Under the pieces are notes generated by a model that ran no database searches, was not told where the DNA came from, and saw only the letters and a list, made by a program, of their open reading frames with translations. From positions 2,452,691 through 2,516,690 of the forward strand of contig CBDCTJ010000007.1 of assembly GCA_965222115.1 (NCBI GenBank): 64,000 nt of DNA, read 5' to 3'. The translations under genes and the position numbers were made by a program. Every line of letters starts with the position of its first letter. Positions within the stretch are counted from its first letter, which is position 1. The stretch comes from Planctomycetota bacterium (GTDB lineage Bacteria > Planctomycetota > PLA2 > JAEUHO01). Below, piece after piece: positions 39,042 to 52,696 of the stretch.

Positions 39042-40586
39042 ATGCGATCCACACAATCCTCATCCCCTGCCATTCGTAGCGGGCGCCTCTTGCTGGTGTC
39101 GCTTCAGGTGGTTTTGGCGGCAACCCTCGCTGCCTGCGGTGGCGGAGGTGGTGGGAGCGCAGATGTCATCACCTTCTACTTGGCCGACACCACGCCTCGT
39201 GATGGCCACGTCAATGTACCGACCAATCAGATCATTAGTTTGGTCTTCAACAAAGACGTTGATCCGCTGACGGTTACTCCCTCGTCACTGTCTATCGTTG
39301 CCAACGATGCCGGGGCGATTCAGGGAACGCTAACGCAGTCACAGACTCGGCCCCGAGAACTGCGGTGGGTGCCGTCCGAACTCATGGTGGCAGGGGAACG
39401 TCACTTTTGCACCGTGTCGAGCGGGTTACGTTCCGTCGATGGCGAGGCGCTTTCCGGTGCCACGCAGTTTGAGTTCCATACCATTGGCGGTTCGACCGGC
39501 CCCCCGATCCCCGATCCAACGCGGCTTCGGCGAACCATTGGATCGATGAACGAAGGCCGGCAGTCACACCGCGCCACGCTACTAACTGATGGCCGCGTTT
39601 TGGTTACGGGTGGTTTCGATAGCGGATCGCACGCAACCGATACGGCCGAGTTGTATCTGCCGTTCAACGACACGTTTATCAATACGTCCAACGAGATGCT
39701 GACTGAACGCGCGAGCCATGCATCCGTACGACTTGCAAATGGACATGTGCTCATTTGCGGTGGATTCCGTCAGCAGAGTGGAAGTACGTTGACCGCCCTG
39801 GCGACGGCCGAGGTATACAATCCTGCGTCCAACACGTTTGCGCCGGTGGGCGACATGGCGGTGGAACGCGCCAACCACACGGCAACACTGTTGGACGATG
39901 GGCGCGTGCTGATCGCCGGCGGAAGCACCTACGTGTCGGGCTCGTTGACCGACCACATTACTGCCGAGATCTACGATCCCGGAACGTCAACATTTGCGCT
40001 CTTATCCGAAGACATGCTGCACACACGCAGCAGCCATGTGGCGCTGAAACGATCCGACGGTGACGTTGCACTCTTTGGCGGAAGCCAAGGCGACCTGCGC
40101 GTGGGTGTCTTTGATCCCACCACCGATTCGTTTACCAGCTTGGGAATTCCACCATCGGCGTCGGCACAGTTTGGTGCCGCGGCAGCCCTGTTCCCGAGCG
40201 GCGGTATTTCCGTTGCAGGTGGCAGCGTGCGCGGCGATGTCTTTCATTTGCGTGACGGTGAGACCTTTGTCTTCAATACCGGTAGCCCGCTGTGGCGTGC
40301 ACGCTCGTATGCGACGTCCAGTGTGATTGCACCCGACACGCTCATGGTTGTGGGTGGCATCGACTTTTCACGCGGTGGTTTGATTGAGTCGTCGGTAGAT
40401 ATCATTGTTGAAGGCGGCGTTGGCGGTAGTCGCACCTACGCCACGAGTATGCGTTTCCCAACAGGCATGGCGGCACATACGGCGACGAAACTGGCGAATG
40501 GTGATGTGCTTTTCTGTGGCGGACTCGATCCAGCGGGCGTGGCAAGTTACAACGCCGCATATATTTACGAAGTGCCAACCGAGTAG
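39042..40586 (+). CDS. Kelch-repeat beta-propeller lipoprotein with N-terminal Ig-like domain
   Basis: Signal peptide and lipobox (LAATLAACGGGGGG); repeated Kelch-like blades (RQSHRATLLTDGRVLVTGG, RASHASVRLANGHVLICGG, RANHTATLLDDGRVLIAGG, RSSHVALKRSDGDVALFGG). Confidence 0.65.
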   Translation: MRSTQSSSPAIRSGRLLLVSLQVVLAATLAACGGGGGGSADVITFYLADTTPRDGHVNVPTNQIISLVFNKDVDPLTVTPSSLSIVANDAGAIQGTLTQSQTRPRELRWVPSELMVAGERHFCTVSSGLRSVDGEALSGATQFEFHTIGGSTGPPIPDPTRLRRTIGSMNEGRQSHRATLLTDGRVLVTGGFDSGSHATDTAELYLPFNDTFINTSNEMLTERASHASVRLANGHVLICGGFRQQSGSTLTALATAEVYNPASNTFAPVGDMAVERANHTATLLDDGRVLIAGGSTYVSGSLTDHITAEIYDPGTSTFALLSEDMLHTRSSHVALKRSDGDVALFGGSQGDLRVGVFDPTTDSFTSLGIPPSASAQFGAAAALFPSGGISVAGGSVRGDVFHLRDGETFVFNTGSPLWRARSYATSSVIAPDTLMVVGGIDFSRGGLIESSVDIIVEGGVGGSRTYATSMRFPTGMAAHTATKLANGDVLFCGGLDPAGVASYNAAYIYEVPTE

Positions 40587-40788: not shown

Positions 40789-42966
40789 ATGCGGCGCCAA
40801 AAGACCCTCACCGTCATGTTCACCGATATCTCGGGGTTTACGAAGCACACCGAGACCGTTACGCGCGATGAATTGATGGCGCGGCTCGACGAGCACAACG
40901 CCCTACTCATGCCCATTGTGCGCCACTTTGAAGGTCGTATTGTGAAGTCCATTGGCGATGCGCTCATGATCGTCTTCGAAAGTCCAACGAACGCCGTGCA
41001 ATGTGGGATGTTGATGCAACATCGATTGGCGCGCCACAACCGTGGCAGGGTTGAATTCGAACAGATACACATCAAGGTTTCGCTCAACGCTGGCGAAGTC
41101 ACAGTAACCGAGAACGATGTCTTTGGCGATTGCGTCAATGTGGCGGCAAAGATTGAGAAGGCCACACGGCCCGACGAAATCTACTTCACGGAATCGGTCT
41201 TCCTCGCCATGAACAAAGCGGAGGTGCCCAACGTCTTCGTAAAGAACTTTCGACCTAAGGGTGAACAGAGCCATGAGATCAAGCTCTACAAGGTCATCCA
41301 AGATGTAACCAACGAACAGTACGCACGTCTTATCCGCGATACGGACATTAAGGACGACGATCCATCCGACGCGCTTGAGCTATCGGATCTTGCAGGCAGC
41401 GATCTTCCTAGCGGCCACGACTCCTTGGCGGAACTCATTGCCGACGAACGGGCACGTTCGCGAAAGAACCTTTTGCTGGCAACGGCCTTAGGCGCCTTGT
41501 TGCTCGGCGGGCTCGTCGTAGGGGGACTGGCGCTGTTTAGTGGCAGCAAAGGCCCCACCGCTGCCGATCGTACGACCGACGCCGTTCGTGCCTACTTGGC
41601 CAAAGGCAATGTGGAGGGCGCCCGATCCGCGATCGCCAATTTTGGAGCCGACGGCGGGAGTCAAGAACGCATTGCGCAGTTGCAGCGCGAGATTCACGCC
41701 TATCAGGGTGGTGAATCGGTAAAGCGCATCAAGGCGCTACTTGCCGACGACAACGTGGACGATGCCCGTTCACTTGTCGGTAGCAATCGCGAGTTCATTC
41801 CGACCGCGTTGCTGACTCACATCGATGCGCTAGCGGCGGCGGAACAGGCGCTACGCGACGGCGACGCGGAGGCGGCGCGTAAGGGCTTGCAGGGTGCGGA
41901 CCCGACGTTCACTCCGAGGAACGCCTACGCGGCGTGCAAGAAGCGAATCGAGGCCATCGATACCGCGTGGCACGTGCATGAACACTCGGAATCGGTCGAT
42001 GACGCAGAGCGAGCAATCGAGGTCCTGTCGGGGGCATTCGGAGACGACACCCATCATCCTGTGGCCACGCGTATTTTGGGCGACATGATCATTCGTTCTG
42101 TTGGCATGACAGCTCGGACGAGTGGGCGCAAGGCGATCCGCGAGCACTTTGACGCGCTCATGAAACGCTTTCCAGGTATCAAAGATCGCACGCGTATTCG
42201 CCGCGAAGTGCAGCTCCACGCGCTGTGGTTTTACACGAGTGACTACGAGGCTCGACGTCGCTGGCGCGGTCGATTTGACAGCCAGAGTCAACGGGAGATT
42301 GCTACGCTTCGCGAGCTGGGCAAAGGCGATGCCGACTTTTTGTTTCGACTTGGCGTCACGCGCCACCGGATTTCGCGAAAGAACGGACTCGGCATATCGG
42401 ATGGCGCGCAAGACATTGAGAGCGCCATGAAGTTGGATCCGCGCCTCATTGAAACGCGTGCCGACGAGTTGTACCCGATTGCGATCGATTGGCTACGTTG
42501 GGTGTCGTCTCCCGATTCACTGGCCCACAAGCTCGTTACGGGCCCCTTCAAAGAGCGTGCGCGCGAGCATCTTTTTGCCCGTGCCTTTGCTCCCTACGGT
42601 GGCAAGCGCGACGACGCACCGCGGCCTGAAGAACGCGCCAATGCTGTTGCGGCGTTGGTTGCCATGAATGCACCGATCGAAACCGAACAAGCCGTGGAGT
42701 TTGTGACCAACAACTGGAAGACCGTGCTCACGGGTCGCAATCCGATCATTTCCATCGATGTCTTTGCTGCTCTCTTTGCCCGCAAGGACATGGCCTACGA
42801 GTACTTCGAACGCTTGGCAGGCGACATCAAACGGATCCAAACCGAACTGGGCGCCAAGCGAGGCAAGTTCAGCGCCTACAAGCACGCCCGCGATCGCATC
42901 CTCGCTCTCCGCCGCACCCTCATCGACGCCCACCCCGCTCACGCCAAACGCTTCGCCGCAAACTAG
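40789..42966 (+). CDS. class III adenylate/guanylate cyclase: N-terminal catalytic domain, single TM, large C-terminal helical domain
   Basis: Cyclase motifs LTVMFTDISGFT, VKSIGDALMIVF, GDCVNVAAKIE; hydrophobic helix LLLATALGALLLGGLVVGGLALF at ~aa 225-250; ~470 aa of helical/TPR-like sequence after it. Confidence 0.75.
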   Translation: MRRQKTLTVMFTDISGFTKHTETVTRDELMARLDEHNALLMPIVRHFEGRIVKSIGDALMIVFESPTNAVQCGMLMQHRLARHNRGRVEFEQIHIKVSLNAGEVTVTENDVFGDCVNVAAKIEKATRPDEIYFTESVFLAMNKAEVPNVFVKNFRPKGEQSHEIKLYKVIQDVTNEQYARLIRDTDIKDDDPSDALELSDLAGSDLPSGHDSLAELIADERARSRKNLLLATALGALLLGGLVVGGLALFSGSKGPTAADRTTDAVRAYLAKGNVEGARSAIANFGADGGSQERIAQLQREIHAYQGGESVKRIKALLADDNVDDARSLVGSNREFIPTALLTHIDALAAAEQALRDGDAEAARKGLQGADPTFTPRNAYAACKKRIEAIDTAWHVHEHSESVDDAERAIEVLSGAFGDDTHHPVATRILGDMIIRSVGMTARTSGRKAIREHFDALMKRFPGIKDRTRIRREVQLHALWFYTSDYEARRRWRGRFDSQSQREIATLRELGKGDADFLFRLGVTRHRISRKNGLGISDGAQDIESAMKLDPRLIETRADELYPIAIDWLRWVSSPDSLAHKLVTGPFKERAREHLFARAFAPYGGKRDDAPRPEERANAVAALVAMNAPIETEQAVEFVTNNWKTVLTGRNPIISIDVFAALFARKDMAYEYFERLAGDIKRIQTELGAKRGKFSAYKHARDRILALRRTLIDAHPAHAKRFAAN

Positions 42967-43159
42967 GCTCTGTCTGAAAGCTCCTCTACTGCGCAATCCG
43001 ATCCTCTCGCTGCGAGTCGCGTCCCTTCGAAATTGCCGTCCTCGACGTGAACAGACCACGCCTGCGGGCCAATTTCTTGGTCCATCGACTCTCGCATCGG
43101 TCTCCCGCGTTTATTGAAGAGACACGGGCTCGTCACGAGGCTTTTCAGGCAGGGCCTAA

Positions 43160-43339
43160 TGCGCCACAAATACCAGGTATAGTTGGCGCACGGGCCCGTA
43201 GACGCCCATTCGTTGGGCTCGCCCCGGCGCGCGATACTCGTCGTGCGCCACAGAAACCAGGTATTTTTGGCGCATGCCGATAGGCGAGCGCGCTACGCGA
43301 CATGGCGGTGCGCCAGAAAAACCAGGTATTTTTGGCGCA
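43160..43339. repeat. three tandem copies of a ~31-bp palindromic repeat in the cyclase / lpdA convergent intergenic region
   Basis: TGCGCCACAAATACCAGGTATAGTTGGCGCA (43160..43190), TGCGCCACAGAAACCAGGTATTTTTGGCGCA (43244..43274), TGCGCCAGAAAAACCAGGTATTTTTGGCGCA (43309..43339); same family as 10199..10229. Confidence 0.8.
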
Positions 43340-43343
43340 CGGA

Positions 43344-44753
43344 TTAGGGGTTGAGAATGTGGATGGCTTTGCCGTGAACGGCTTCGGCGGCTTCCATGAG
43401 GGATTCGGGCCAGGTGGGGTGGGCGTGGACCGTGAGGGCAATGTCTTCGCTAGTGGCGCCCATTTCGATGGCGAGCGCGGCTTCGGCGATGAGGTCGGAA
43501 GCTTGGTAGCCAACGCCGGACACGCCCAGTACTTCATCGGTTTCGGGATCCGCAATGATCTTTACGAATCCGTCGGTGGCACTCACGGAGAGCGCGCGAC
43601 CCAAGGCTGTGAACGGGAACTTGCCCACCTTTACGTTACGCCCCGCTTCTTTGGCCTCGTGTTCCTGTAGTCCTACGGTTGCGACTTCGGGATGGGTGAA
43701 CGTTGCGGCGGGCATGGCACGCACGTCGTAGACGCTACTCGTGTTCCCGGCCGCGTGCTCGGCTGCCACAATGCCTTCCTTGCTTGCCTTGTGGGCCAGC
43801 CACGGCAATCCGGCGACGTCACCAATCGCGTAGATGTGTGGCACATTGGTCTGTCGGCTTTCGTTTACGGCGAAGTGACCCGTGTCGTCGATTTGTAAGC
43901 CGGCCGCATCGCGACCCACGCGATCGGAATTGGGTTTGAAGCCAATCGCACACAGGACGACTTCGGAGGGTATCGACAGTTCTTTCCCCTTCTTATCCTT
44001 TGCTTTCACGATGAGGTTTTTGCCGGTGCCTTCGATGGCTGTGGCACCGGTTTCCTTATGAATCTTCCCCTTGAGTTTCTTGATCGACTTCTCGACCACC
44101 TTTACGAGGTCGGGATCCGTACCGGGAAGGAGCGACTTGGTCAGCTCAATCACGGTCAACTTGGAACCCAAGCGCTGGAAGACAGTCCCTAGCTCTAGGC
44201 CAATCACGCCGCCGCCAATTACCGTGAACGAATCCGGCACCCAATCGATGTCGAGCGCCTCGCGATAGGTCATGACATTGCCGCCGATGGGCAGAAACGG
44301 CAGGGTGGCCGCACGTGCTCCGGTAGCCACAATGCACTTGTCAAATGATACCGCCTGCGTCTTGCCGTCGCTGTCCTTCACAGCGAGAGCCTTCGGCGAC
44401 GTGAACTCGGCATGTCCGTGAATCGTGGTCACGCCGTTCTTACTAAGCAAGAAACCAACACCTGTTGTGAGGCGATTGACGATGCCCGACTTCCACTCCT
44501 GGAGCTTCTTCCCGTCTACCTCGACATCACCAACGACAACGCCCATGGCATCGGCCTTGCGAATCTTGTCCACCAAGCCACTTGCGTAGATCAAGCTCTT
44601 TGAGGGAATGCAACCCACATTGAGACACACGCCACCAATCTTGTCCTCTTCGATGACGGCAGTCTTGAGTCCGAGTTGACCTGCACGAATGGCGGCCACA
44701 TAGCCGCCCGGCCCAGATCCAATCACGACAAGATCAAAGTGTTGATCAGCCAT
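43344..44753 (-). CDS. lpdA: dihydrolipoyl dehydrogenase (E3)
   Basis: FAD motif DLVVIGSGPGGYVAA; redox disulfide GGVCLNVGCIPSK; C-terminal HAHPTWPE interface motif. Confidence 0.9.
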   Translation of the reverse strand: MADQHFDLVVIGSGPGGYVAAIRAGQLGLKTAVIEEDKIGGVCLNVGCIPSKSLIYASGLVDKIRKADAMGVVVGDVEVDGKKLQEWKSGIVNRLTTGVGFLLSKNGVTTIHGHAEFTSPKALAVKDSDGKTQAVSFDKCIVATGARAATLPFLPIGGNVMTYREALDIDWVPDSFTVIGGGVIGLELGTVFQRLGSKLTVIELTKSLLPGTDPDLVKVVEKSIKKLKGKIHKETGATAIEGTGKNLIVKAKDKKGKELSIPSEVVLCAIGFKPNSDRVGRDAAGLQIDDTGHFAVNESRQTNVPHIYAIGDVAGLPWLAHKASKEGIVAAEHAAGNTSSVYDVRAMPAATFTHPEVATVGLQEHEAKEAGRNVKVGKFPFTALGRALSVSATDGFVKIIADPETDEVLGVSGVGYQASDLIAEAALAIEMGATSEDIALTVHAHPTWPESLMEAAEAVHGKAIHILNP

Positions 44754-44807
44754 TGAGAACTCCTCACGCGACGCGCGTAGCGCCTCGTGCATGAAAGAAC
44801 AGATTCG

Positions 44808-46010
44808 TTAGACCGGAAGATCGCCCGCCAAACGCTCTTCTTGATCGCGAAGTTGCGCCGGTTTTTCGTGCCATACATCGGTGAAGAGTGTGGCGGGAGA
44901 AACGGCACTCGCGGCCTCCACCTGGGCAATGGTCTCACTGATGGTCTTGCCCGACGCGGCGAGAAAGTCTTCTTCGCGCCCTGCGTCCCACTCACCCTTG
45001 CTCTCGAGCCATGTGCGAAGACGCAGTAGGGGATCACGTTTGATCCACATCGCGGCTTCACGTTCATCGCGATACTTGGTGGGGTCATCGGAAGAACTGT
45101 GACCGCCCAATCGGTAGGTCAAACACTCAATAAATGTTGGGCCTTCACCATTTCGCGCGCGATCGACGGCCGCCTTGGTGGCGATGTAGCACGCGAGTGC
45201 ATCGTTGCCGTCCACACGAATGCCAGGCATCCCGTAGGCGCGTGCCTTGATGGCCAGTGTTTCGCTCGCCGTTTGCATCGAAAGCGGAACTGAGATGGCC
45301 CACTGGTTGTTTTGGCACACAAACACAACCGGCGCCTTCCACACGCCGGCGAAATTGAGCCCGGCATGGAAGTCGTTCTCGGATGTGGCCCCGTCACCCA
45401 GATAACCGCCAACAACGCGATCGGTTTCGCCTCGAACTTGCATGGCACGCGCAGCACCGACGGCCTGCGAAACCTGCGTAGCAATGGGCGAGCTGAGCGT
45501 GACGAAGTGATTGGCCGGATCTGAGTAGTGACATGGCATTTGCCGGCCTTTGGTGGGATCGGCATCGTTGGCAAAGCACTGGGCGATGTAGTCGGCCAAG
45601 GGCATGCCGCGCCAAAGCGCTATCGCGCCTTCGCGAAGGGCGGGGAAGAGCCAGTCGTCGGCTTCAAACGCTGCACCCGAACCAAGTGCTGCGCCCTCTT
45701 GTCCCTTGGCGGTTCCGTAGAAACCGATTCGACCCTGCCGCTGCAGGTTCAGCATGCGCTGATCGAGCGCTCGTTGAAACAACATGGCCTCAAGCAAGCG
45801 TGCGGCGAGTCCCTTTGGCAAGGACGGGAGCGTGCCTACTTCCTTGCCGTTTTCATCCACAAGCTGATAGAGCCCGAGCGGTCCGACCTCGTAAGGATCG
45901 AGCGCGCCACGCGGCGCCTTCTTGCTTGCGCGTTTTTTTGCAGGGGTTCGCTTCTTGGCGGCCATAGCATCCGACTTCTTGGTGGTGGATCCGGTGGACT
46001 CTGGCGTCAC
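44808..46010 (-). CDS. 2-oxoacid dehydrogenase E1 component alpha subunit, paralog 2, with Lys-rich N-terminal tail
   Basis: TPP-binding GDGATSENDFHAGLNFAGVWKAPVVFVCQNNQWAISVP and phospho-loop region YRLGGHSSSDDP; N-terminal TTKKSDAMAAKKRTPAKKRASKKAPRG. Confidence 0.8.
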   Translation of the reverse strand: MTPESTGSTTKKSDAMAAKKRTPAKKRASKKAPRGALDPYEVGPLGLYQLVDENGKEVGTLPSLPKGLAARLLEAMLFQRALDQRMLNLQRQGRIGFYGTAKGQEGAALGSGAAFEADDWLFPALREGAIALWRGMPLADYIAQCFANDADPTKGRQMPCHYSDPANHFVTLSSPIATQVSQAVGAARAMQVRGETDRVVGGYLGDGATSENDFHAGLNFAGVWKAPVVFVCQNNQWAISVPLSMQTASETLAIKARAYGMPGIRVDGNDALACYIATKAAVDRARNGEGPTFIECLTYRLGGHSSSDDPTKYRDEREAAMWIKRDPLLRLRTWLESKGEWDAGREEDFLAASGKTISETIAQVEAASAVSPATLFTDVWHEKPAQLRDQEERLAGDLPV

Positions 46011-46013
46011 GAG

Positions 46014-47321
46014 CTACACGCCTTCTATCAGCATCAAACCGGGTTGCTCAAGCAAACGAATGAGCTCATTCATGAACCGAGCGGCTGTAGCGCCGTCCAC
46101 GATTCGGTGATCAAGTGTGATGGAAAGATTGCACATCTTCCGAATCACAATCTCACCGTCGCGCACGACCGGTGTGTCGGCAATCTTATACACACCAAGA
46201 ATACCTACTTCGGGGTAGTTGAGAATTGGCGTGGCCAAGATGCCACCGATGCTTCCCGCACTTGTAATCGTAAACGTGCTACCTTTGAGATCTTCGACCG
46301 CAATCTTCTTGTTACGTGCAGCCTCGGTCACGCGCTGAAGCTCGGAAGCAATCTGCAAGATGCTGAGGCGATCGACTTCCTTGATGACGGGTACCGTGAG
46401 GCCCAAGGGGGTATCCGTGGCAATGCCTATGTTGTAGTCGCCCTTCACGATGTAGCTGTTGTTGTTGTCGTCTACCAATGCATTGACGGTGGGGAACTTA
46501 CGGAAGCACGAAACCAATGCCTTGATGATGAACGGCAGGTAGGTGAGCTTGACGCCTTCCGCAGCTGCGGCGGCCTTGGCTTCCTTGCGGAGCTTAGCCA
46601 AGTTGGTCATGTCGCATTCGTCGGCGAACGTGAAGTGCGGCGAGAACTGTTTCGAGCGCACCATTTGTTCGGCAATCTTTCCGCGCAAACCTCGCAGTGG
46701 AACCACCTGGTCTTCGCGACGCGCGGCGACAGGCGGAAGTTCGACCCGTGCGCGAGGTGCACTCGCCGCAACGGGCGCGGGCACAACCCCTGGTGCACCG
46801 CCGCCGCGATAGTTTTCCACGTCCTTGCGTGTCACCCGGCCACGTTCGCCGGTTGCGGGAATCGCGTTCAGATCATAGCCACGCTCGCGGGCGAGTTTGC
46901 GTACGGCGGGCGCCGCCAGAGTGCGTTCGCGAAGCACCGAAGTCGTGGATCCGTTCGAGGAAGAGATCGGCGCGGCCGCAACGGGAGTTGGTGCCGCCTT
47001 GGGTACGCTCGCGGTAGGTGTCTGCGTTGATGCTGGAGCCGGCGCTTCGGCTTTCGTGTCGCCGCCGCCTGCAGTTCCGCCACCCTTCCCGTTGTCGATC
47101 ACAACCATGATCGATCCTACAGGAATGGTCTCGCCTTCCTGCGCCTTGATGCTCTTGATGGTGCCCGCGCACGGTGAGGTGATCTCAACCGTCGCTTTGT
47201 CCGTCATGACTTCAACCATCGGCTGATCGTCTTTGACGACGTCACCTTCTTTGACGAGCCACGTAACGACTTCGCCTTCAGTCAGTCCTTCGCCAATGTC
47301 GGGGAGCTTGAATTCGTACAT
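46014..47321 (-). CDS. dihydrolipoamide acyltransferase (E2)
   Basis: Lipoyl domain with EVMTDKATVEITSP; Ala/Pro-rich linker; E3-binding domain; catalytic DHRIVDGATAARF. Confidence 0.85.
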   Translation of the reverse strand: MYEFKLPDIGEGLTEGEVVTWLVKEGDVVKDDQPMVEVMTDKATVEITSPCAGTIKSIKAQEGETIPVGSIMVVIDNGKGGGTAGGGDTKAEAPAPASTQTPTASVPKAAPTPVAAAPISSSNGSTTSVLRERTLAAPAVRKLARERGYDLNAIPATGERGRVTRKDVENYRGGGAPGVVPAPVAASAPRARVELPPVAARREDQVVPLRGLRGKIAEQMVRSKQFSPHFTFADECDMTNLAKLRKEAKAAAAAEGVKLTYLPFIIKALVSCFRKFPTVNALVDDNNNSYIVKGDYNIGIATDTPLGLTVPVIKEVDRLSILQIASELQRVTEAARNKKIAVEDLKGSTFTITSAGSIGGILATPILNYPEVGILGVYKIADTPVVRDGEIVIRKMCNLSITLDHRIVDGATAARFMNELIRLLEQPGLMLIEGV

Positions 47322-47380
47322 AGAGTCTCTCGTGTCGATTCGAATGGTGTGTTTGCAGGATGGGGGCGCCTCGTGATTGG

Positions 47381-48358
47381 CTATTCCCAGCGCGCCGTGT
47401 ACTCAATGGCATTGAGTACACGTGCCTTGTCGGGCTTGTACACATGCTCAAGCGCATAGGGGAAGGGCGTGTCGAATCCTGCAACACGAGCGATGGGCGC
47501 TTCGAGATACTCGATGGCTTTCTCGGCAACTGTTGCAGACACTTCGGAAGCGAAACCACACGTGCGTGGTGCTTCCTGAACGGCCACACAACGCCCGGTC
47601 TTCTTTACGCTTTCAACTACTGACGCAGCGTCCCACGGAAGCAAGCTGCGAAGATCAATGATCTCAGCGTCGATGCCCTTTTCTGCGGCCTCCGCCGCCG
47701 CAGCCTCAACGATGGGCACCATAGCGCCCCACGTGACAACCGTGATGTCGTTGCCGCTGCGCACCGTGCGTGCCTTGTCGAGCTCAACGGTGAAGTAGCC
47801 CTCGTCCACGTCTTGTTTGCCATGGCGATAAAGTGCTTTGGGCTCTAAGAACAGCACCGGGTCATCGCAAAAGATGGATGAGAGCAACATGCCCTTCGCG
47901 TCAGACGGTGTGCTTGGCATGACCACGCGCAAGCCGGGTGTGTGGGCAAAGTAGGCCTCACTTGACTGCGAGTGATAGTGACCGCCGCGAATGCCTCCAC
48001 CGGACGGCGAACGAATCACCATGGGGCAGGTGAAGTGACCGCCGGAGCGATAGCGCATTTTCGCGGCCTCGGAAACGATTTGGTCAAAGCCGGGATAGAT
48101 AAAATCTAAGAATTGAATCTCTGGCACCGGTCGCAACCCGTAGAGCGCCATGCCAATGGCTGTGCCCATGATGCCGCACTCTGAAAGCGGCGTATCCATC
48201 ACGCGCAGGTCGCCGTACTTGTTGTGAAGTCCGTCGGTGGCGCCAAATACGCCACCTTTCTTGCCGATATCTTCACCCAACATCACAACGTCGCCATCGC
48301 GATCCATCGCGAGATGCAGGGCGTCGTTGATGGCTTGCAGCATGGTCATCTGAGGCAT
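47381..48358 (-). CDS. 2-oxoacid dehydrogenase E1 component beta subunit
   Basis: Transketolase-like pyrimidine-binding and C-terminal domains (VVMLGEDIGKKGGVFGAT, ITVVTWGAMV); ~325 aa. Confidence 0.85.
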   Translation of the reverse strand: MPQMTMLQAINDALHLAMDRDGDVVMLGEDIGKKGGVFGATDGLHNKYGDLRVMDTPLSECGIMGTAIGMALYGLRPVPEIQFLDFIYPGFDQIVSEAAKMRYRSGGHFTCPMVIRSPSGGGIRGGHYHSQSSEAYFAHTPGLRVVMPSTPSDAKGMLLSSIFCDDPVLFLEPKALYRHGKQDVDEGYFTVELDKARTVRSGNDITVVTWGAMVPIVEAAAAEAAEKGIDAEIIDLRSLLPWDAASVVESVKKTGRCVAVQEAPRTCGFASEVSATVAEKAIEYLEAPIARVAGFDTPFPYALEHVYKPDKARVLNAIEYTARWE

Positions 48359-48430
48359 GAGCTGATTCCTGAATGCGTGTCGAATGGGATTCGACGAAAT
48401 ACGGGTATTGAAACGAAGGCGAGCGAACGT

Positions 48431-49555
48431 TTAGAGCGGGAACGCGCCGCCCGTGTCTTCAATGTCGCCGCTGCGCTTGATCTGATCCATCAACGCGTCG
48501 CGCTGCTCACGGAGCTGGGCGGGCATCTCGTGCCACACGTCATCAAAGAGCGTCTCTACCGCCGGCTGGGGCGTGCTCTCAGCGGCTTCGACCGCCGCGG
48601 CGATGTCGGCCTGGATCGTTTCGGTAAGCTCCTTCTCCCAAGCCTCTGTCCAGAGCTTCTTCGTCTTGAGCCACGCACGGAAACGATCAATTGGGTCCTT
48701 CTTCTGCCAGGATTCGAATAGTTCTTTGGCTTGATAGCGGGACGGATCGTCACTTGACGAGTGGGGACCCATGCGGAAGGTCACCGTTTCGATCAGCGTG
48801 GGACCTTCTCCCTTTACTGCGCGTTCGCGAGCTTCCTTCGCGGCTTCGTACACTGCGAGCACGTCATTGCCATCGACACGCACGCCGCGCATGCCGTAGG
48901 CGATGGCCTTGTCGGCAAACGTTGTGGACGCGGTCTGTTGTTCCTGGGGAACTGAGATCGCCCAGTGGTTGTTCTCACACATGAACACGCACGGCGATTT
49001 CCATACACCCGCGAAATTGAGCCCCGCATGGAAGTCGTTGGATGACGTTCCACCATCGCCAAACCATGCCCACACGACTTTCTTGTCGCCGCGAATCTGT
49101 GCCGCACGCGCTGCACCTGCGGCCTGGCTAATCTGCGTGCCGATGGGCGAACTGATGCTTACCCAGTTGATATCGGGTATCGCAAAGTGGTTGGGCATCT
49201 GGCGACCCTTGACGAGGTCGGTGGCATTGCCCCAAAGTTGGTCGTAGAGCACCTTAAGTGGCACGTTCTTGAGCAGTGCGATCGAATGCGTGCGATACGA
49301 CGGGAAGAGTACGTCCTCATCGCCAAATGCATAGGCGGCACCAATCTGGCTCGCTTCCTGGCCTTTCGAGGGCACGAAAAATCCGATTCTGCCCTGACGC
49401 TGAAGGTTCATGCCCCGCTGATCAAAGAGGCGCGTCATCAGCATGGCGCGAAAGAGGGACTTGAAATCCTCGTCCTTGAGGCCCGCAGGCGCGCGGCCCT
49501 TGGCCTTTCCCTTCGCTTCCATGACCGAGTGCATAGGTGGGGGTGCCGTGGTCAT
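48431..49555 (-). CDS. 2-oxoacid dehydrogenase E1 component alpha subunit, paralog 1
   Basis: TPP-binding GDGGTSSNDFHAGLNFAGVWKSPCVFMCENNHWAISVP, FRMGPHSSSDDP; start at ATG 49555 (MTTAPPP) with AGGAG upstream. Confidence 0.8.
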   Translation of the reverse strand: MTTAPPPMHSVMEAKGKAKGRAPAGLKDEDFKSLFRAMLMTRLFDQRGMNLQRQGRIGFFVPSKGQEASQIGAAYAFGDEDVLFPSYRTHSIALLKNVPLKVLYDQLWGNATDLVKGRQMPNHFAIPDINWVSISSPIGTQISQAAGAARAAQIRGDKKVVWAWFGDGGTSSNDFHAGLNFAGVWKSPCVFMCENNHWAISVPQEQQTASTTFADKAIAYGMRGVRVDGNDVLAVYEAAKEARERAVKGEGPTLIETVTFRMGPHSSSDDPSRYQAKELFESWQKKDPIDRFRAWLKTKKLWTEAWEKELTETIQADIAAAVEAAESTPQPAVETLFDDVWHEMPAQLREQRDALMDQIKRSGDIEDTGGAFPL

Positions 49556-49649
49556 GAAAACTCCTCTTTCGTGTGTCTCCGTCGCAACGAACAACCCGAG
49601 AGACGCCAAGCGAACGCGAAGGATACGCCGTCTCGAACTCGCCTCCAAG

Positions 49650-49715
49650 CGGCGTAGGTAGACCTACTCGCATTTGATTGCTATATGCAAATAAATCGAT
49701 CAAAGTGTACTTGTC
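49650..49715. promoter_or_regulatory. candidate operator/promoter upstream of the 2-oxoacid dehydrogenase operon
   Basis: Perfect palindrome GTAGGT-ag-ACCTAC (49655..49668) followed by an AT-rich imperfect palindrome ATTTGATTGC-TATAT-GCAAATAAAT, a conspicuous low-GC island in the divergent intergenic region. Confidence 0.3.
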
Positions 49716-49895
49716 TGTTGCCCAGCAAGGCACCACGCGCCGTACAGACAGCCCAAAAAATGGGGAGATGCGTGCATTCGATGGCGCTTTGAGGGTCGTC
49801 CGTGCGTACTACGATGCCGACGTCTTTTTGGAGTCTACACCTTGCCGTCACCATACTTACAGCGGTTCGTGCACGCTCAACGCACCCGCCTGGCA

Positions 49896-50360
49896 ATGAG
49901 CTGCTTCCTGGCCCTATTGCTTGTGGCTTGCGGCGGGAATGACACGTCCCTTTCCCGCGAAACAAGCAAATCGATGTCGGGCACCAAGACACCCGCACAG
50001 GTGCTAACGCGCCTCCGCACGGTCCTGAAGGACGGCCAAGGGCTGGCCAACGCGAATTGGCAGGAAGACATCGAAGCGGTAGTCAATGCCCTATGGCCCG
50101 ATGCGCCCACCTCCGAGCCCGCCATGCTGCACCGTCGATTGAGCATGATTACGGCCGACACAGCGCGCTGGCTTGCCCGCGGCAATGACGCGCGCATTGA
50201 ATGGGAATTGAGATACCCGCTCGACGTCGCCATTCACGATGGATATCTGAAAGCGACCGGCATGGGCCCGGATGCGTACAAGGCGTGGTGCACCAGTGAA
50301 GGTGCCATGCTGCTCGACAAGAAGATTCGCGAGCAGATGCGCGAAGCCAAGAATCGATAG
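49896..50360 (+). CDS. lipoprotein, unknown function
   Basis: Signal peptide and lipobox MSCFLALLLVACGGN from ATG 49896 (track ORF opens at TTG 49842). Confidence 0.4.
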   Translation: MSCFLALLLVACGGNDTSLSRETSKSMSGTKTPAQVLTRLRTVLKDGQGLANANWQEDIEAVVNALWPDAPTSEPAMLHRRLSMITADTARWLARGNDARIEWELRYPLDVAIHDGYLKATGMGPDAYKAWCTSEGAMLLDKKIREQMREAKNR

Positions 50361-50401
50361 ACTCGGTTTGCCAATCTTAGTCATGTCTGGCGGGGGCAAT
50401 C

Positions 50402-50947
50402 ATGTTTGAAGCATTTCGAGAAGACGAATGGGCGAACGCGCTTTCGTGGTACGACTATCTGAAGACGGTTAAGACGAAAGAAGACATTTGGGCGAGCTAT
50501 GAGAAGCGCGCACGTGTGTCAGAACTAGCAGCATCACGATTGAAGGCACTGCCCGGGAGACGTAGGGCGCTGGTGTTGACCGAAGATTGGTGCGGCGACG
50601 CAGCGCGTTCCGTGCCACAGCTTCAAGCCATCTTTGATGCGACGGATCTCGTTGAGGCGCGGTACTTGTTGTCGGACGATCATCCAGATGTACTTTCGCG
50701 CTACACGTCGCACGGCGGTCGTGCTATTCCGATGTGCATCATTCAAGACGAGAAGAACAACGTGTTGGGTGTGTGGGGGCCACGACCGGCAGCGTTGCAG
50801 ACAGTCATGCGGGCACGCAAAGTTGAGTTGGGGCCTTCGACGAAGGAGAATTTGGCCGAGTGGTACTCGCCTATTCTGGCGTGGTATGCGAAAGACAAGG
50901 GCGAGGCGGTGACGGATGAGATTCTGTTGGTTTTGGAGCGGGGGTAA
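50402..50947 (+). CDS. thioredoxin-fold protein (single-Cys variant)
   Basis: Thioredoxin-like region ALVLTEDWCGDAARSVPQL with only one Cys where CxxC would sit; ~180 aa. Confidence 0.45.
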   Translation: MFEAFREDEWANALSWYDYLKTVKTKEDIWASYEKRARVSELAASRLKALPGRRRALVLTEDWCGDAARSVPQLQAIFDATDLVEARYLLSDDHPDVLSRYTSHGGRAIPMCIIQDEKNNVLGVWGPRPAALQTVMRARKVELGPSTKENLAEWYSPILAWYAKDKGEAVTDEILLVLERG

Positions 50948-51037: not shown

Positions 51038-52459
51038 CTAGTCGATAATCTCAAGTCGGACAAGAGCCTCTGCTTCGCCGCCCGCTCTATTCAGAATGAG
51101 ATCTGCACGACCCACTGGCACACCTGGCATCGGAGGAATAGTGAATGTGGCTCGCGTGGGCGAATGGACCGTGAGCACATAGTCGCGAGCCTCCCCACTG
51201 TCTGGGTGGCTACTGTCGAATGGGAATAGCACTGCGACATTGACGGTTGTGTCGAACTTGAAACCCTCGAGGCTTACAACCGCTCCCGCTGCGCGGCTCA
51301 CGGCACGTGGCGAGATGCTGGTAATCGACACTCCACGTGGTTTGACATCGATCCTGTCCTGGATGTCCTTGGAGCCAGAAATGCAAAGGGCGAGAGTCTG
51401 GCCGAACTGGAATGGCGTGCTCGACTTCAAAGTGGATTCAGTCTGTCCAGCTACGTGAGAGTCCGATGCAAGGTTCGTTATTTTGTCACCTTGTGCGTTC
51501 ATGCTCCAGAGTTCGAACGATGTCGAAGGTGGGCCGACGATTCTGATCGTGGTCTCGCCCACAAGGGCAGGCCATATGAAATAAGGAGACGCCTCATCGG
51601 ACTCGAGCACATCATTCCTCACTGTCTGTTGCTCATCCGCACGCCCATCGCCATCCGTGTCGCGAACACGCAAGTCTTCGAAGACTGTACCTACCATCGC
51701 GGGGTCATCACGATAGAGGCAAAGGCACTTGTCCGCCGTGTTGAACTCGATGACTCTGGTCTCCTTAAGCTCGTGCGTCTTTGTTGAGTCGAGAAAAACT
51801 GTCGCTGACAGGGCGTCGGGAACCCTGTCACCATTCCTGTCTGTCACGCGGCGAATTTCGTAGTTGCGCGTGTCGAACACGTAGCACTCCCCTGAGATAG
51901 TAGGAGCCACGCTTGTCCAGCGTGCTCCTCCTGCAGGCGGGCTCGGATCCTCAATCGTAGCAACCAACTCATTTGCGGTGAAATGTCCGTCGTCGTTGGC
52001 GTCCCTGTAGTATTCAAGTCGGCCCTGGATGACTCCCACGATCTCAACATCGCCAACGATGCCGAGCAACAATCGGTCATCCGTCGATCGGTTGTACACG
52101 ACGAATTCGTGAATCAGCGTGTAGTCAGTGGCAAGGGACGTTGGATTCTGTGGAGGCAACGAATGGGGTGCGCATTCGATCGTTGATGCACCTACTAGAA
52201 AATAATCCGCCTCAACTGCGGCACCGTGTGGATCTAGGATGCCAAACTGCATACCAAGGAGCGGAATTACGACTTCTGATGAGGTTGGCGGCAATGCTGC
52301 CTGGGCATTGAACGGCACCCACGGCGTATACACATCTGTTTCGTCTAGATGCGGATCATCGGCTGAGGATCCGCAGGAGACGAGCATGATCGCGCATACC
52401 AGGCCGACAGCCAGTCGGTACGCGTACGAGATTAGGGACTTAGACATACCGCGCTTCAT
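51038..52459 (-). CDS. lipoprotein with Ca-binding-like and Ig/TIG-like regions, unknown function
   Basis: Signal peptide and lipobox (LAVGLVCAIMLVSCGSS) from ATG 52459; DTDGDGRAD-type acidic loop; beta-rich C-terminus; lower GC (~52-54%) than flanks. Confidence 0.5.
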   Translation of the reverse strand: MKRGMSKSLISYAYRLAVGLVCAIMLVSCGSSADDPHLDETDVYTPWVPFNAQAALPPTSSEVVIPLLGMQFGILDPHGAAVEADYFLVGASTIECAPHSLPPQNPTSLATDYTLIHEFVVYNRSTDDRLLLGIVGDVEIVGVIQGRLEYYRDANDDGHFTANELVATIEDPSPPAGGARWTSVAPTISGECYVFDTRNYEIRRVTDRNGDRVPDALSATVFLDSTKTHELKETRVIEFNTADKCLCLYRDDPAMVGTVFEDLRVRDTDGDGRADEQQTVRNDVLESDEASPYFIWPALVGETTIRIVGPPSTSFELWSMNAQGDKITNLASDSHVAGQTESTLKSSTPFQFGQTLALCISGSKDIQDRIDVKPRGVSITSISPRAVSRAAGAVVSLEGFKFDTTVNVAVLFPFDSSHPDSGEARDYVLTVHSPTRATFTIPPMPGVPVGRADLILNRAGGEAEALVRLEIID

Positions 52460-52696
52460 CGTATCAATCGGAGAGGCGATGTACGGATCGATTGTGAATC
52501 TCGCGGGCGACAAATTGGCGGACTGATGTTCGACCATGAACGAATAGGGTCAGGCAACAGATTAGGATTCGGATTCAGACGCGGAAAGAGTTTGTGGTCA
52601 CATTGTCTCCTTCCTGCACAATCTCCTTCGAAGTGATTCAGCACGCAATCATTCGCGTCGAGTTACGGTGTAGATGACTCATCGTAGGAGCAGGGT

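Follow-up and report, generated by a model that had tools for sequence, protein, structure and literature searches.

Heterotetrameric E1 enzymes of the 2-oxoacid dehydrogenase complexes have been described for the branched-chain (BCKDH) complexes of human (E1b, 1DTW), Thermus thermophilus HB8 (1UM9) and Pseudomonas putida (1QS0), each with one alpha per beta, and for the pyruvate dehydrogenase (PDH) of Geobacillus stearothermophilus and Bacillus (E1p alpha2beta2, 1W85 and 3DUF). The branched-chain enzyme (EC 1.2.4.4) decarboxylates 2-oxoisovalerate, 2-oxoisocaproate and 2-oxo-3-methylvalerate oxidatively. The PDH genes of the latter are arranged in the order E1-alpha, E1-beta, E2, E3, and the E2 carries one lipoyl domain and a peripheral-subunit-binding domain. 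One such complex, with a single E1-alpha, may serve more than one 2-oxoacid, and the PDH complex of Bacillus subtilis reportedly also oxidises branched-chain 2-oxoacids. Two E1-alpha paralogs are known in mammals, in which PDHA1 and PDHA2, the somatic and testis isoforms, share one PDHB, E2 and E3; the two isoforms are closely related, do not differ in their active-site residues, and are expressed tissue-specifically from separate loci. Among bacteria, Streptomyces avermitilis carries two E1-alpha paralogs for 2-oxoacid oxidation in two complete E1-alpha/E1-beta/E2 clusters, bkdABC and bkdFGH, with a separate beta and E2 for each alpha.

The locus analysed here lies on the minus strand within a 64,000-nucleotide stretch (the window) of a Planctomycetota contig, and differs from the Bacillus arrangement in that a second, differently built E1-alpha is inserted between E2 and E3. 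After Pfam and NCBIfam profile searches of the open reading frames, the order E1-alpha(1), E1-beta, E2, E1-alpha(2), lpdA given in the preliminary description was confirmed over positions 43344-49555 (Table 1). The five genes are tightly spaced, with successive gaps of 72, 59, 3 (or 48) and 15 (or 54) nt, the alternative values applying if alpha2 starts at ATG 45965 and lpdA at ATG 44753. For alpha2 this in-frame ATG fits the starts of its orthologs better than GTG 46010; for alpha1 the Shine-Dalgarno-like sequence AAGAGGAG in front of the ATG supports a start at 49555 rather than the longer TTG reading frame that reaches 49648. The E2 contains lipoyl, peripheral-subunit-binding and acyltransferase domains, and lpdA matched TIGR01350 from residue 18 with 530 bits (cut-off 409), so that the domain and enzyme set of a complete complex was found. 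The best explanation of this gene content is that the operon encodes a single 2-oxoacid dehydrogenase complex of the heterotetrameric-E1 (BCKDH or Gram-positive PDH) kind.

Table 1. Features of the two-alpha operon (all on the minus strand; positions in the window; human numbering is that of BCKDH E1-alpha).
Feature	Position	Strand	Basis
Shine-Dalgarno-like sequence, 5 nt upstream of the alpha1 ATG	49561..49568	-	read from sequence
E1-alpha paralog 1 (alpha1-type, canonical), 374 aa from ATG	48431..49555	-	PF00676, TIGR03181
alpha1 Tyr87 codon TAT (human E1b-alpha Tyr113, Geobacillus Tyr102)	49295..49297	-	alignment, codon check
E1-beta, 325 aa	47381..48358	-	Transket_pyr, Transketolase_C
E2 acyltransferase, 435 aa	46014..47321	-	PF00364 lipoyl (one domain), PF02817 peripheral-subunit-binding/E3-binding, PF00198 2-oxoacid_dh catalytic
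E1-alpha paralog 2 (alpha2-type), 400 aa from GTG 46010 or 385 aa from ATG 45965	44808..46010	-	PF00676
Basic Lys/Arg/Ala/Pro-rich tail of alpha2, about residues 1-37	45900..46010	-	sequence
alpha2 Gly99 codon (human position 87), two residues after Phe85	45714..45716	-	alignment
alpha2 Leu125 codon CTT (human Tyr113 position, thiazolium/diphosphate contact)	45636..45638	-	alignment
alpha2 Cys160 codon in GRQMPCHY loop (human position 148)	45531..45533	-	alignment
alpha2 ThDP/Mg-binding motif, G205-D206-G207 through Q233-N234-N235	45306..45398	-	alignment
alpha2 phospho-loop equivalent (R300, H304, S305, D308, Y313)	45072..45113	-	alignment
lpdA dihydrolipoyl dehydrogenase (E3), 482 aa ORF, probable start ATG 44753	43344..44792	-	TIGR01350

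Both alphas matched the E1_dh family PF00676 over its full length (327.8 bits for alpha1 and 298.7 for alpha2; cut-off 22). Against TIGR03181 (PDH_E1_alph_x, the pyruvate dehydrogenase E1 alpha equivalog; cut-off 411.35) alpha1 scored 412.0 bits, barely above the limit, and alpha2 381.3, and the score alone makes neither of them pyruvate-specific. The closest solved relatives of alpha1 were the E1-alpha of Geobacillus PDH (298 bits) and the E1b-alpha of Thermus (297 bits), and that of alpha2 was human BCKDH E1-alpha (303 bits). Among solved structures, the beta most resembled the branched-chain 2-oxoacid dehydrogenase beta of Thermus (405 bits), followed by the BCKDH beta of P. putida (374) and the PDH beta of Geobacillus (329); the best match of the E2 was the Geobacillus PDH E2p (352 bits), with BCKDH E2 far lower at about 170 bits. 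By sequence the components of the operon thus look mixed, with a beta like those of Thermus and Pseudomonas BCKDH and an E2 nearest to that of Geobacillus PDH. The BCKDH-type GRQMPxH active-site loop, which the Geobacillus E1p-alpha lacks, is present in both window alphas together with the K+-site loop S-S-P-x-x-T-Q (S161, S162, T166 and Q167 in human numbering, used hereafter for family positions), and the C-terminal motif LF-DVW-E-PAQLR is common to alpha1, alpha2 and human E1b-alpha. The AF2 model of alpha2 (pTM 0.81) superimposed by Foldseek on human and Thermus E1b-alpha with a TM score of about 0.8, human E1b-alpha being its best match in fold as in sequence; as judged from this model, the E1-alpha fold of alpha2 is intact.

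The Lys-rich N-terminal tail noted for paralog 2 in the preliminary description was recovered with either start codon (MAAKKRTPAKKRASKKAPRG...). Residues 4-35 had pLDDT values below 50 in the AF2 model, and the tail is predicted to be disordered. Planctomycete alpha2 orthologs carry tails that are alike in composition and not conserved in sequence, and the tail of one homolog matches the histone-H1-like family PF07382. In a rough analysis the tail was apparently absent from alpha2-type genes outside the planctomycetes, and it appears, from these comparisons, to be specific to Planctomycetota.

The two alphas were aligned with the crystallised human, Thermus and Geobacillus references, 37 alpha1-type proteins, 83 alpha2-type proteins taken from loci and about 360 more from protein searches. 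The ThDP/Mg site was taken as GDG-X(25-30)-NN, in which Asp and the second Asn bind the metal; to acylate the lipoyl domain reductively, an E1 needs the His of the active-site loop (His291 in human), the Ser next to it and a network of Arg287, Asp295 and Tyr300. It had been claimed that both paralogs retain the TPP-binding motif and the phospho-loop, and the alignment agrees: the motif, verified at codon level, reads GDGGTS...ENN in alpha1 (G166-D167-G168...N196) and GDGATS...QNN in alpha2 (G205-D206-G207...N235), and the loop network is R261, H265, S266, D269 and Y274 in alpha1, with all five counterparts present in alpha2 (His-Ser at H304/S305). Across the 83 alpha2-type and 37 alpha1-type sequences the ThDP/Mg motif was invariant except for two D193E in the alpha1-type. 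Within the 83 alpha2-type proteins F85, R114, H149, S161, S162, G192-D193-G194, N221, N222, I226, R287, H291, D295 and Y300 were invariant, as was Q167; R144, Q145 and S292 were nearly so (81/83 each), as was T166 (78/83), position 163 of the K+ loop being variable (V48, P22, C9). Fourteen tabulated positions, R287, H291, S292, D295 and Y300 of the phospho-loop included, were essentially invariant in the 360 further homologs. The two window alphas, both full length, share 50% identity over 352 aa; the systematic differences between the types are few, with 116 conserved positions being identical in both.

The cleanest difference that defines the alpha2 clade, missed in the preliminary description, is at a cofactor-contacting residue. 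At position 113 alpha1 has the conserved Tyr followed by Arg114 (Y87-R88), whereas alpha2 has Leu in place of the Tyr (L125-R126); the Arg is invariant in both types. Leu113 was found in 83/83 alpha2-type proteins from loci and in all 359 alignable further homologs, and Tyr113 in 37/37 alpha1-type proteins and the three references. In the wider family (top 150 cluster representatives) the position is occupied by Y in 94, L in 22, F in 16 and H in 6; the 16 Phe and 6 His indicate that Tyr113 is not universal, so that losing only the hydroxyl has precedents. Two residues after Phe85, which is conserved in all sequences examined, position 87 is Gly in 83/83 and 353/358 alpha2-type proteins, L, V, I or M in the alpha1-type and M, A and A in the references, and Gly87 is coupled to Leu113 (94 of 96 Leu113 sequences have it). 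In addition, position 148 is Cys in 80/83 and 357/360 alpha2-type proteins against V or N in the alpha1-type, and position 220 is Gln in 81/83 against Glu. On this sequence comparison the Tyr-to-Leu exchange is a fixed signature of a family and not a mark of decay, and alpha2 apparently represents a distinct, widespread and hitherto undescribed E1-alpha subfamily marked by Leu113, Gly87 and Cys148.

For the conserved Tyr (human Tyr113), the distances from the hydroxyl are 2.9 A to the thiazolium S and 2.8 A to a terminal phosphate O of ThDP, and this residue restrains cofactor reactivity (PMC2663715). In the engineered human Y113F protein both kcat and paracatalytic inactivation are increased, as the work of Machius et al. 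2006 is summarised in PMC2663715 and PMC4102578. The alpha2-type proteins naturally lack the same hydroxyl, but with Leu coupled to Gly87 and Cys148 instead of Phe; the phenotype of Y113F was measured on the human enzyme.

Upstream sequence of 4.6 kb or more was available for 47 related alpha2-type loci, and the order alpha-beta-E2-alpha' was present in 37 of them. Of 75 loci with sufficient flank, 44 had E3 directly behind alpha2; the order alpha-beta-E2-alpha', with or without E3, was also seen in loci L001-L004 and L086. These loci span classes of Planctomycetota and include MAGs that carry the labels Acidobacteriota, Myxococcota and Eisenbacteria, and in some of them alpha2 is only 51-58% identical to that of the window. 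More than 100 alpha2 orthologs were found at 65-79% identity. Between close orthologous loci the identity was 70-83% for alpha1, 69-79% for alpha2 and 58-72% for E2, indicating that the conservation of alpha2 is close to that of alpha1 and exceeds that of E2. The alpha2 reading frames are complete at all loci but L003, where the assembly is visibly frameshifted. Each related locus carries one E1-beta, no second beta being found in loci of roughly 19 kb. As compared across these lineages, the two-alpha arrangement is old and widespread, and no description of a two-alpha/one-beta architecture was found in the searchable literature. In simple neighbour-joining trees the bootstrap values for the exact alpha2 clade were weak (39/100 and 2/50). 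Eight alpha2-type genes are orphans, with neither alpha1 nor beta nor E2 inside 9 kb (L041, L045, L056, L057, L058, L075, L081 and L084); such orphans occur in Bipolaricaulota, in Fraserbacteria and on some Planctomycetota contigs, and in L041 and L081 alpha2 stands beside E3 only. Alpha2 can therefore be encoded apart from beta, and a partner other than a neighbouring beta is conceivable.

The preliminary description proposed that two alphas are served by one beta/E2/E3 set. This proposal fits the data and, on sequence evidence, is much strengthened by a gene order kept across phyla. We lean, with some reserve, towards the reading that two intact E1-alphas of different ancient types share the single beta, E2 and E3, forming two kinds of active site that would differ in the acyl pocket and/or in cofactor reactivity. 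Unlike PDHA1 and PDHA2, these alphas are presumably co-transcribed, anciently diverged at 50% identity and different at a cofactor-contacting residue.

The two active sites of E1 enzymes are thought to communicate, and we considered an obligate mixed alpha1-alpha2-beta2 tetramer in which the two sites are hard-wired to differ, one restrained by Tyr and the other unrestrained with Leu, within one asymmetric machine. Co-transcription of both alphas with one beta in an order fixed across phyla would suit such an enzyme, and so would their near-identity at conserved positions away from the cofactor contact, as expected if both fit the same beta dimer; the alpha1-type group is also nearest to the alpha2 clade in the weakly supported tree, which fits duplication within the operon. 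The orphan alpha2 genes far from any alpha1 speak against it, as does a sequence that enforces no hetero- over homo-pairing, and we consider the mixed tetramer unlikely. Those same orphans, and the two loci with alpha2 and E3 only, are what would be expected if alpha2 paired with a beta encoded elsewhere or served another complex, its place between E2 and E3 being a matter of co-regulation. Little weight can be given to this possibility, however, since at most informative loci, from lineages far apart, alpha2 directly follows E2 at a distance between a few and some tens of nt, and the surrounding loci hold no other beta.

A regulatory, non-catalytic alpha, also suggested in the preliminary description, or a structural pseudo-subunit or degenerating duplicate, could be imagined from the missing Tyr113, the odd disordered basic tail and the score below the TIGR03181 cut-off. 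This is very improbable and largely refuted by conservation: the Mg/ThDP ligands are invariant and the His-Ser phospho-loop essentially so in several hundred alpha2-type sequences forming about 20 clusters at 50% identity, alpha2 changes at a rate similar to alpha1, its reading frames remain open, the one altered contact is fixed family-wide, and the human Y113F enzyme, in the account given in PMC2663715, is more active rather than dead. An assembly artefact or recent strain-specific duplication, for which nothing was found in favour, is ruled out, because the copies are divergent and dozens of independent contigs, drawn from various studies and phyla, show the same order.

For the favoured reading of two alphas on one shared set, each alpha would pair with the single operon beta, the pairing of alpha2 being deduced from its genomic position, and the beta would supply the pyrimidine-binding half of the ThDP site. 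The alpha1-beta and alpha2-beta enzymes would then constitute two kinds of E1 active site, both serving one E2, whose lipoyl domain they would acylate reductively, and one E3 that would re-oxidise it. Alternative substrate specificities, as first suggested, are still the best reading of such a pair, but altered ThDP reactivity is equally live, because the systematic differences are few and lie at the cofactor and acyl pocket (87, 113, 148 and 220); with so small a number of them, the sequences give no obvious sign of a large change of specificity. Next to the thiazolium C2/S1 the two kinds of site would offer different room and polarity, and the signature may affect the range of 2-oxoacids that the complex accepts, the restraint on the enamine-ThDP intermediate, or both.

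The 2-oxoacid dehydrogenase operon consists of five successive ORFs on the minus strand (43344-49648), and the gene set, order and coordinates of the preliminary description proved correct after analysis of the ORFs, the Pfam and NCBIfam matches, the intergenic gaps (72, 59, 3 and 15 nt from alpha1 to lpdA) and the identity between the two alphas (50% across 352 residues). The ATG of alpha1 at 49555 follows 5 nt after AAGAGGAG, so that the longer ORF with a TTG start (to 49648) is probably not the true gene. The longest ORF of alpha2 starts with GTG at 46010, the E2 stop lying 3 nt before; its orthologs start with MAAK, MAAR or MATKK, and an in-frame ATG at 45965 (MAAKKRTPAKKRASKK...) fits these. 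Since the alignment with the family model begins at residue 18, lpdA probably starts with the ATG at 44753. A scan of 42900-50100 gave no sigma-70-like promoter sites and no more terminator-like sites than expected by chance, both being uninformative on the operon boundaries, and an Rfam search of 43000-50500 gave no match. The ORF antisense to E2 and alpha2 is most likely not a gene but a consequence of high G+C content and biased codon usage in the opposite-strand genes.

Positions of the operon genes, neighbouring genes and related features in the window and in the compared loci
Feature	Location	Position	Strand	Description
alpha1	window	48431-49555	-	E1_dh, 328 bits (Pfam/NCBIfam)
beta	window	47381-48358	-	Transket_pyr + Transketolase_C
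E2	window	46014-47321	-	lipoyl, E3-binding and catalytic domains
alpha2	window	44808-46010	-	E1_dh, 299 bits (Pfam/NCBIfam)
lpdA	window	43344-44792	-	TIGR01350 match, 530 bits
Tail of alpha2	window	45900-46010		N-terminal extension
Antisense ORF	window	45528-47030	+	500 aa
Argininosuccinate lyase	window	37493-38920		downstream neighbour
Big_5 + Kelch-repeat protein	window	39042-40586		lipoprotein-like, downstream neighbour
725-aa protein	window	40789-42966		N-terminal adenylate/guanylate cyclase domain, long unannotated C-terminal region
Divergent small ORF	window	49842-50360	+	172 aa, lipoprotein-like N-terminus (LLVACGG), no Pfam match
Small ORF counterpart	L001	3763-4263	-	38% identity to the window ORF
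Small ORF counterpart	L002	3815-4300	-	
Small ORF counterpart	L003	3877-4332	-	
Thioredoxin_9 protein	window	50402-50947		
499-aa ORF	window	51038-52537		unannotated
Ser/Thr kinase-FGE-sulfatase fusion	L001	1503-3737		
Ser/Thr kinase-FGE-sulfatase fusion	L002	1520-3772		
Ser/Thr kinase-FGE-sulfatase fusion	L003	1578-3845		
lipA (lipoyl synthase)	L004	3304-4245		abuts/overlaps alpha1 start
lipA (lipoyl synthase)	L085	3569-4291		abuts/overlaps alpha1 start
lipA (lipoyl synthase)	L086	2353-3249		
Fragmented alpha1, beta, E2	L003	4500-8000		ERZ25039600 contig_65411
Stand-alone alpha2-type	L056	8914-9981		Leu113/Gly87
Stand-alone alpha2-type	L057	5086-6051		Leu113/Gly87
Stand-alone alpha2-type	L061	3999-4952		Leu113/Gly87
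Stand-alone alpha2-type	L075	9001-10074		Leu113/Gly87
Stand-alone alpha2-type	L045	9001-10020		Leu113/Gly87
Stand-alone alpha2-type	L041 + L081	9001-10047		Leu113/Gly87

More than 100 orthologs of alpha2 were found in the databases at 65-79% identity, all in Planctomycetota metagenomes or MAGs, and the order alpha, beta, E2, second alpha, E3 is repeated on four long contigs carrying them. A set of 80 loci, obtained by scanning a single genome for each GTDB species, was annotated by tblastn with the five window proteins, and the upstream context was counted where 4.6 kb or more precede the alpha2-type gene: alpha-beta-E2 lies immediately 5' of 37 genes, 8 have nothing related there, and 2 have a partial set. 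E3 stands directly 3' of the alpha2-type gene in 44/75, and each locus carries exactly one beta. The arrangement was found in the window's own clade (L005-L023) and also with alpha2 only 51-58% identical to that of the window, in full on contigs labelled Phycisphaeraceae, Planctomycetia and Singulisphaera. With divergent alpha2, the arrangement is also present in loci labelled Acidobacteriota (L052, L067) and Myxococcota (L066); a locus labelled Eisenbacteria (L065) carries a partial arrangement with no alpha1 match, and short or contig-end fragments labelled Brocadiaceae show only E2-alpha2(-E3). Locus L086, found independently, reads lipA-alpha1-beta-E2-alpha2-E3. Only MAGs, and no cultured, named organisms, were present among the homologs of the Singulisphaera-labelled and Myxococcota alpha2-type queries.

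Alpha2-type genes were also found on MAG contigs labelled as archaea (Thermoplasmatota or Methanobacteriota; L042, L051 and L084), the entire, bacterial-looking operon being present in L042; this points to mis-binning or horizontal transfer, and MAG labels need caution. In L003, where alpha1, beta and E2 are fragmented and the alpha2 ortholog P0103 has scrambled stretches, the breakage looks like frameshift errors of long-read assembly rather than real pseudogenes.

The surroundings of the operon are partly conserved. The divergent small ORF is a conserved neighbour with counterparts in three loci, and L001 shows synteny with the window for the lyase and the Kelch protein; the 725-aa cyclase protein was not seen there. 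L001, L002 and L003 encode, two genes upstream of the operon, a fusion of a Ser/Thr protein kinase with an FGE-sulfatase domain; it is absent at that place in the window, which has the Thioredoxin_9 protein and the 499-aa ORF instead. More distant operon versions have lipA (LIAS_N and/or Radical_SAM) immediately 5' of alpha1; the window operon has no adjoining lipA.

Among close orthologous loci (L001, L002, L005, L007, L008, L009, L018 and L023), identity to the window is 70-83% for alpha1, 69-79% for alpha2, 78-83% for beta, 58-72% for E2 and 73-83% for E3. Alpha2 thus changes about as slowly as alpha1 and slower than E2, and both alphas are under purifying selection.

For identification of the residues separating the two types, 120 alpha proteins from the loci were aligned with human BCKDH E1-alpha (1DTW), Thermus E1b-alpha (1UM9) and Geobacillus PDH E1-alpha (1W85), three references with crystal structures, of which the aligned portions were used; the human numbering used here agrees with the landmarks Y113-R114, S161/S162, E193, N222 and H291-S292. 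The alphas located after E2 or standing alone form a group of 83 (alpha2-type), and the first-position alphas a group of 37 (alpha1-type). Throughout the 83, F85, R114, H149, S161, S162, Q167, G192-D193-G194, N221, N222 and I226 are invariant, together with R287, H291, D295 and Y300 of the active site and phospho-loop, while R144, Q145 and S292 are kept in 81; the residues for Mg2+/ThDP binding, the K+ loop, the thiazolium contact (I226) and the active site and phospho-loop are therefore all invariant or nearly so. The two types share the same conserved residue at 116 positions, and only two, 113 and 195 (Gly vs Ala), are conserved within each type yet different between the types.

Residues at the positions distinguishing alpha2-type from alpha1-type proteins (human BCKDH E1-alpha numbering)
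Position	alpha2-type	alpha1-type	Human	Thermus	Geobacillus
113	Leu 83/83	Tyr 37/37	Tyr	Tyr	Tyr
87	Gly 83/83	L/V/I/M	M	A	A
148	Cys 80/83	V/N	V	E	gap
220	Gln 81/83	mostly Glu	R	E	Q
116	Gly 78/83	mostly Pro	A	H	V

After a re-test with 360 further homologs from three protein searches, Leu113 was found in 359/359 alignable sequences, Gly87 in 353/358 and Cys148 in 357/360, and the catalytic residues were essentially invariant again. The signature Leu113/Gly87/Cys148 is fixed in the alpha2-type proteins.

Searching all 1.84 billion cluster representatives gave 1549 proteins at E <= 1e-30, and of the top 150 of these, 94 carry Y at position 113, 22 carry L, 16 F and 6 H. The presence of Phe or His indicates that the "conserved" Tyr is less universal than structural papers suggest; the proteins with Phe (e.g. 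P0144, P0145, P0148, P0168, P0176 and P0180) are mostly Gram-positive-PDH-like and without the GRQMPxH loop. In the alignment of the loci sequences and near-full-length representatives used for tree construction, L113 is coupled to G87 in 94/96, and the alpha2-type extends over about twenty clusters at 50% identity. A pure clade of 87 L113 sequences is recovered in the NJ tree with these representatives; the clade around it takes in another six with G87/L113 and no more than two other proteins, and the following one brings in the alpha1-type group before all other E1-alphas. This topology suggests an ancient duplication inside this operon type; as bootstrap values for the exact sets in the NJ trees are low (39/100 and 2/50), the alpha2 family is defined by its residue signature and not by the tree.

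According to summaries in PMC2663715 and PMC4102578 of the mutagenesis work of Machius et al. 2006, human Tyr113 controls ThDP reactivity and self-inactivation. From this role in known enzymes, the alpha2-type proteins would be naturally and universally without the tyrosine brake, and the family serves as a natural experiment on the residue corresponding to human Tyr113. Gly87 lies two residues past Phe85, which is kept in every sequence examined; the equivalent of Phe85 in Thermus E1b, Phe66-alpha, presumably lines the substrate pocket. His291 and its loop, required for lipoyl-domain recognition and reductive acylation, are also kept, suggesting that alpha2 is a genuine E1 subunit feeding E2 rather than a free decarboxylase or a pseudo-enzyme.

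The class of the complex was examined by comparison with solved relatives. Beta is closest to Thermus branched-chain 2-oxoacid dehydrogenase beta (405 bits), followed by P. putida BCKDH beta (374) and Geobacillus PDH beta (329); E2 is nearest to Geobacillus PDH E2p (352 bits), with BCKDH E2 cores at about 170 bits. Alpha1 matches Geobacillus PDH alpha (298 bits) and Thermus alpha (297 bits) equally, and the best match of alpha2 is human BCKDH alpha (303 bits). Both window alphas carry the BCKDH-type GRQMPxH loop, which is missing from Geobacillus E1p; the NCBIfam 'PDH E1 alpha' cut-off is passed by alpha1 with a small margin only, and alpha2 falls below it. With such mixed affinities, the complex is not assignable to PDH or BCKDH from sequence, and its mixed character is compatible with service to more than one 2-oxoacid.

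The Lys-rich N-terminal tail of alpha2, pointed out in the preliminary description, is real and lineage-specific: all planctomycete orthologs carry a K/R/A/P-rich extension of about 15-40 residues, the sequence of which is not conserved. Across planctomycete alpha2-type proteins in general (P0280-P0399), the tail ranges from about 15 to about 100 residues. Proteins of the Singulisphaera-like group have 390-464 aa, and the tail of P0354 matches the histone-H1-like family PF07382. A rough analysis indicates that the tail is apparently missing in several non-planctomycete alpha2-type genes, the composition in distant loci being qualitative only because stop-to-stop translations take in non-coding sequence. 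The AlphaFold2 model of alpha2, made with the ortholog alignment (pTM 0.81, mean pLDDT 80), fits human and Thermus E1b-alpha with a TM of about 0.8, and its residues 4-35 have pLDDT below 50. The tail may bind to E2, on its acidic lipoyl domains or its linkers, or to other polyanions.

Taken together, we consider it somewhat probable that the operon encodes one complex with two kinds of E1 site, alpha1-beta and alpha2-beta, on a common E2 and E3. Alpha2 would pair with the beta of the operon, and the signature would alter the size and polarity of the acyl pocket beside the thiazolium and/or the restraint of the enamine intermediate. An obligate mixed alpha1-alpha2-beta2 tetramer is an unlikely alternative. 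Equally doubtful is the related proposal that the ThDP site of alpha2 is unrestrained, in which Leu113 would remove the tyrosine brake on the enamine, Gly87 would leave a cavity beside position 113 and Cys148 would place an invariant cysteine within the active-site loop; alpha2 could then be the second, non-equivalent half of an obligate asymmetric alpha1-alpha2-beta2 with hard-wired active-site asymmetry, or an E1 with chemistry or substrates that canonical E1s avoid. If true, it would represent a new functional E1 class, widespread in Planctomycetota and several other phyla.

The use of another beta by alpha2 is slightly less probable again, and is kept alive by orphan alpha2-type genes. Around eight long-flanked genes, no alpha1, beta or E2 was found at a distance of up to 9 kb; those of L056, L057 and L075 lie between unrelated genes, and only E3 adjoins the gene in L041 and L081. 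Stand-alone genes were seen in MAGs labelled Bipolaricaulota/Acetothermia and Fraserbacteria and in some Planctomycetota. Since E1-alpha by itself is without the pyrimidine-binding half of the ThDP site, an orphan alpha2 must use a beta encoded elsewhere, and linkage to the beta of the operon is thus usual but not obligatory. That alpha2 is a pseudo-enzyme or decaying duplicate with disrupted catalytic or ThDP-binding residues, or the regulatory, non-catalytic alpha once suggested, is very improbable, the catalytic residues being invariant or nearly so in both the 83 and the 360 sequences and Leu113 being a fixed signature. An assembly artefact, also raised at first, has a negligible chance with two alphas of 50% identity and the same order on four long contigs and further loci.

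Complexes of this kind are standard textbook material, a single E1 specificity generally being ascribed to each, and mammals have two E1-alpha isoforms, PDHA1 and PDHA2, with one common beta. All components of the operon belong to well-known families. Nothing relevant on a dual-E1-alpha complex or on planctomycete BCKDH/PDH was found in the searchable literature, and the literature searched gave no description of a bacterial operon that is conserved and combines two divergent alphas with a single beta/E2/E3 set, or of an E1-alpha subfamily defined by Leu113/Gly87/Cys148. Database names of alpha2-type proteins are generic only: several hundred genes are now annotated 'pyruvate dehydrogenase E1 alpha' or 'TPP-dependent enzyme', which likely misleads attempts to reconstruct the metabolism of Planctomycetota, uncultured Polyangia and further MAG lineages, and the signature offers a simple rule for their recognition. 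The arrangement is an oddity, clear and open to testing, within a textbook enzyme family, and needs no new principle; two alphas on one beta/E2/E3 set would be a cheap means to widen or tune the oxidation range of a single megacomplex.
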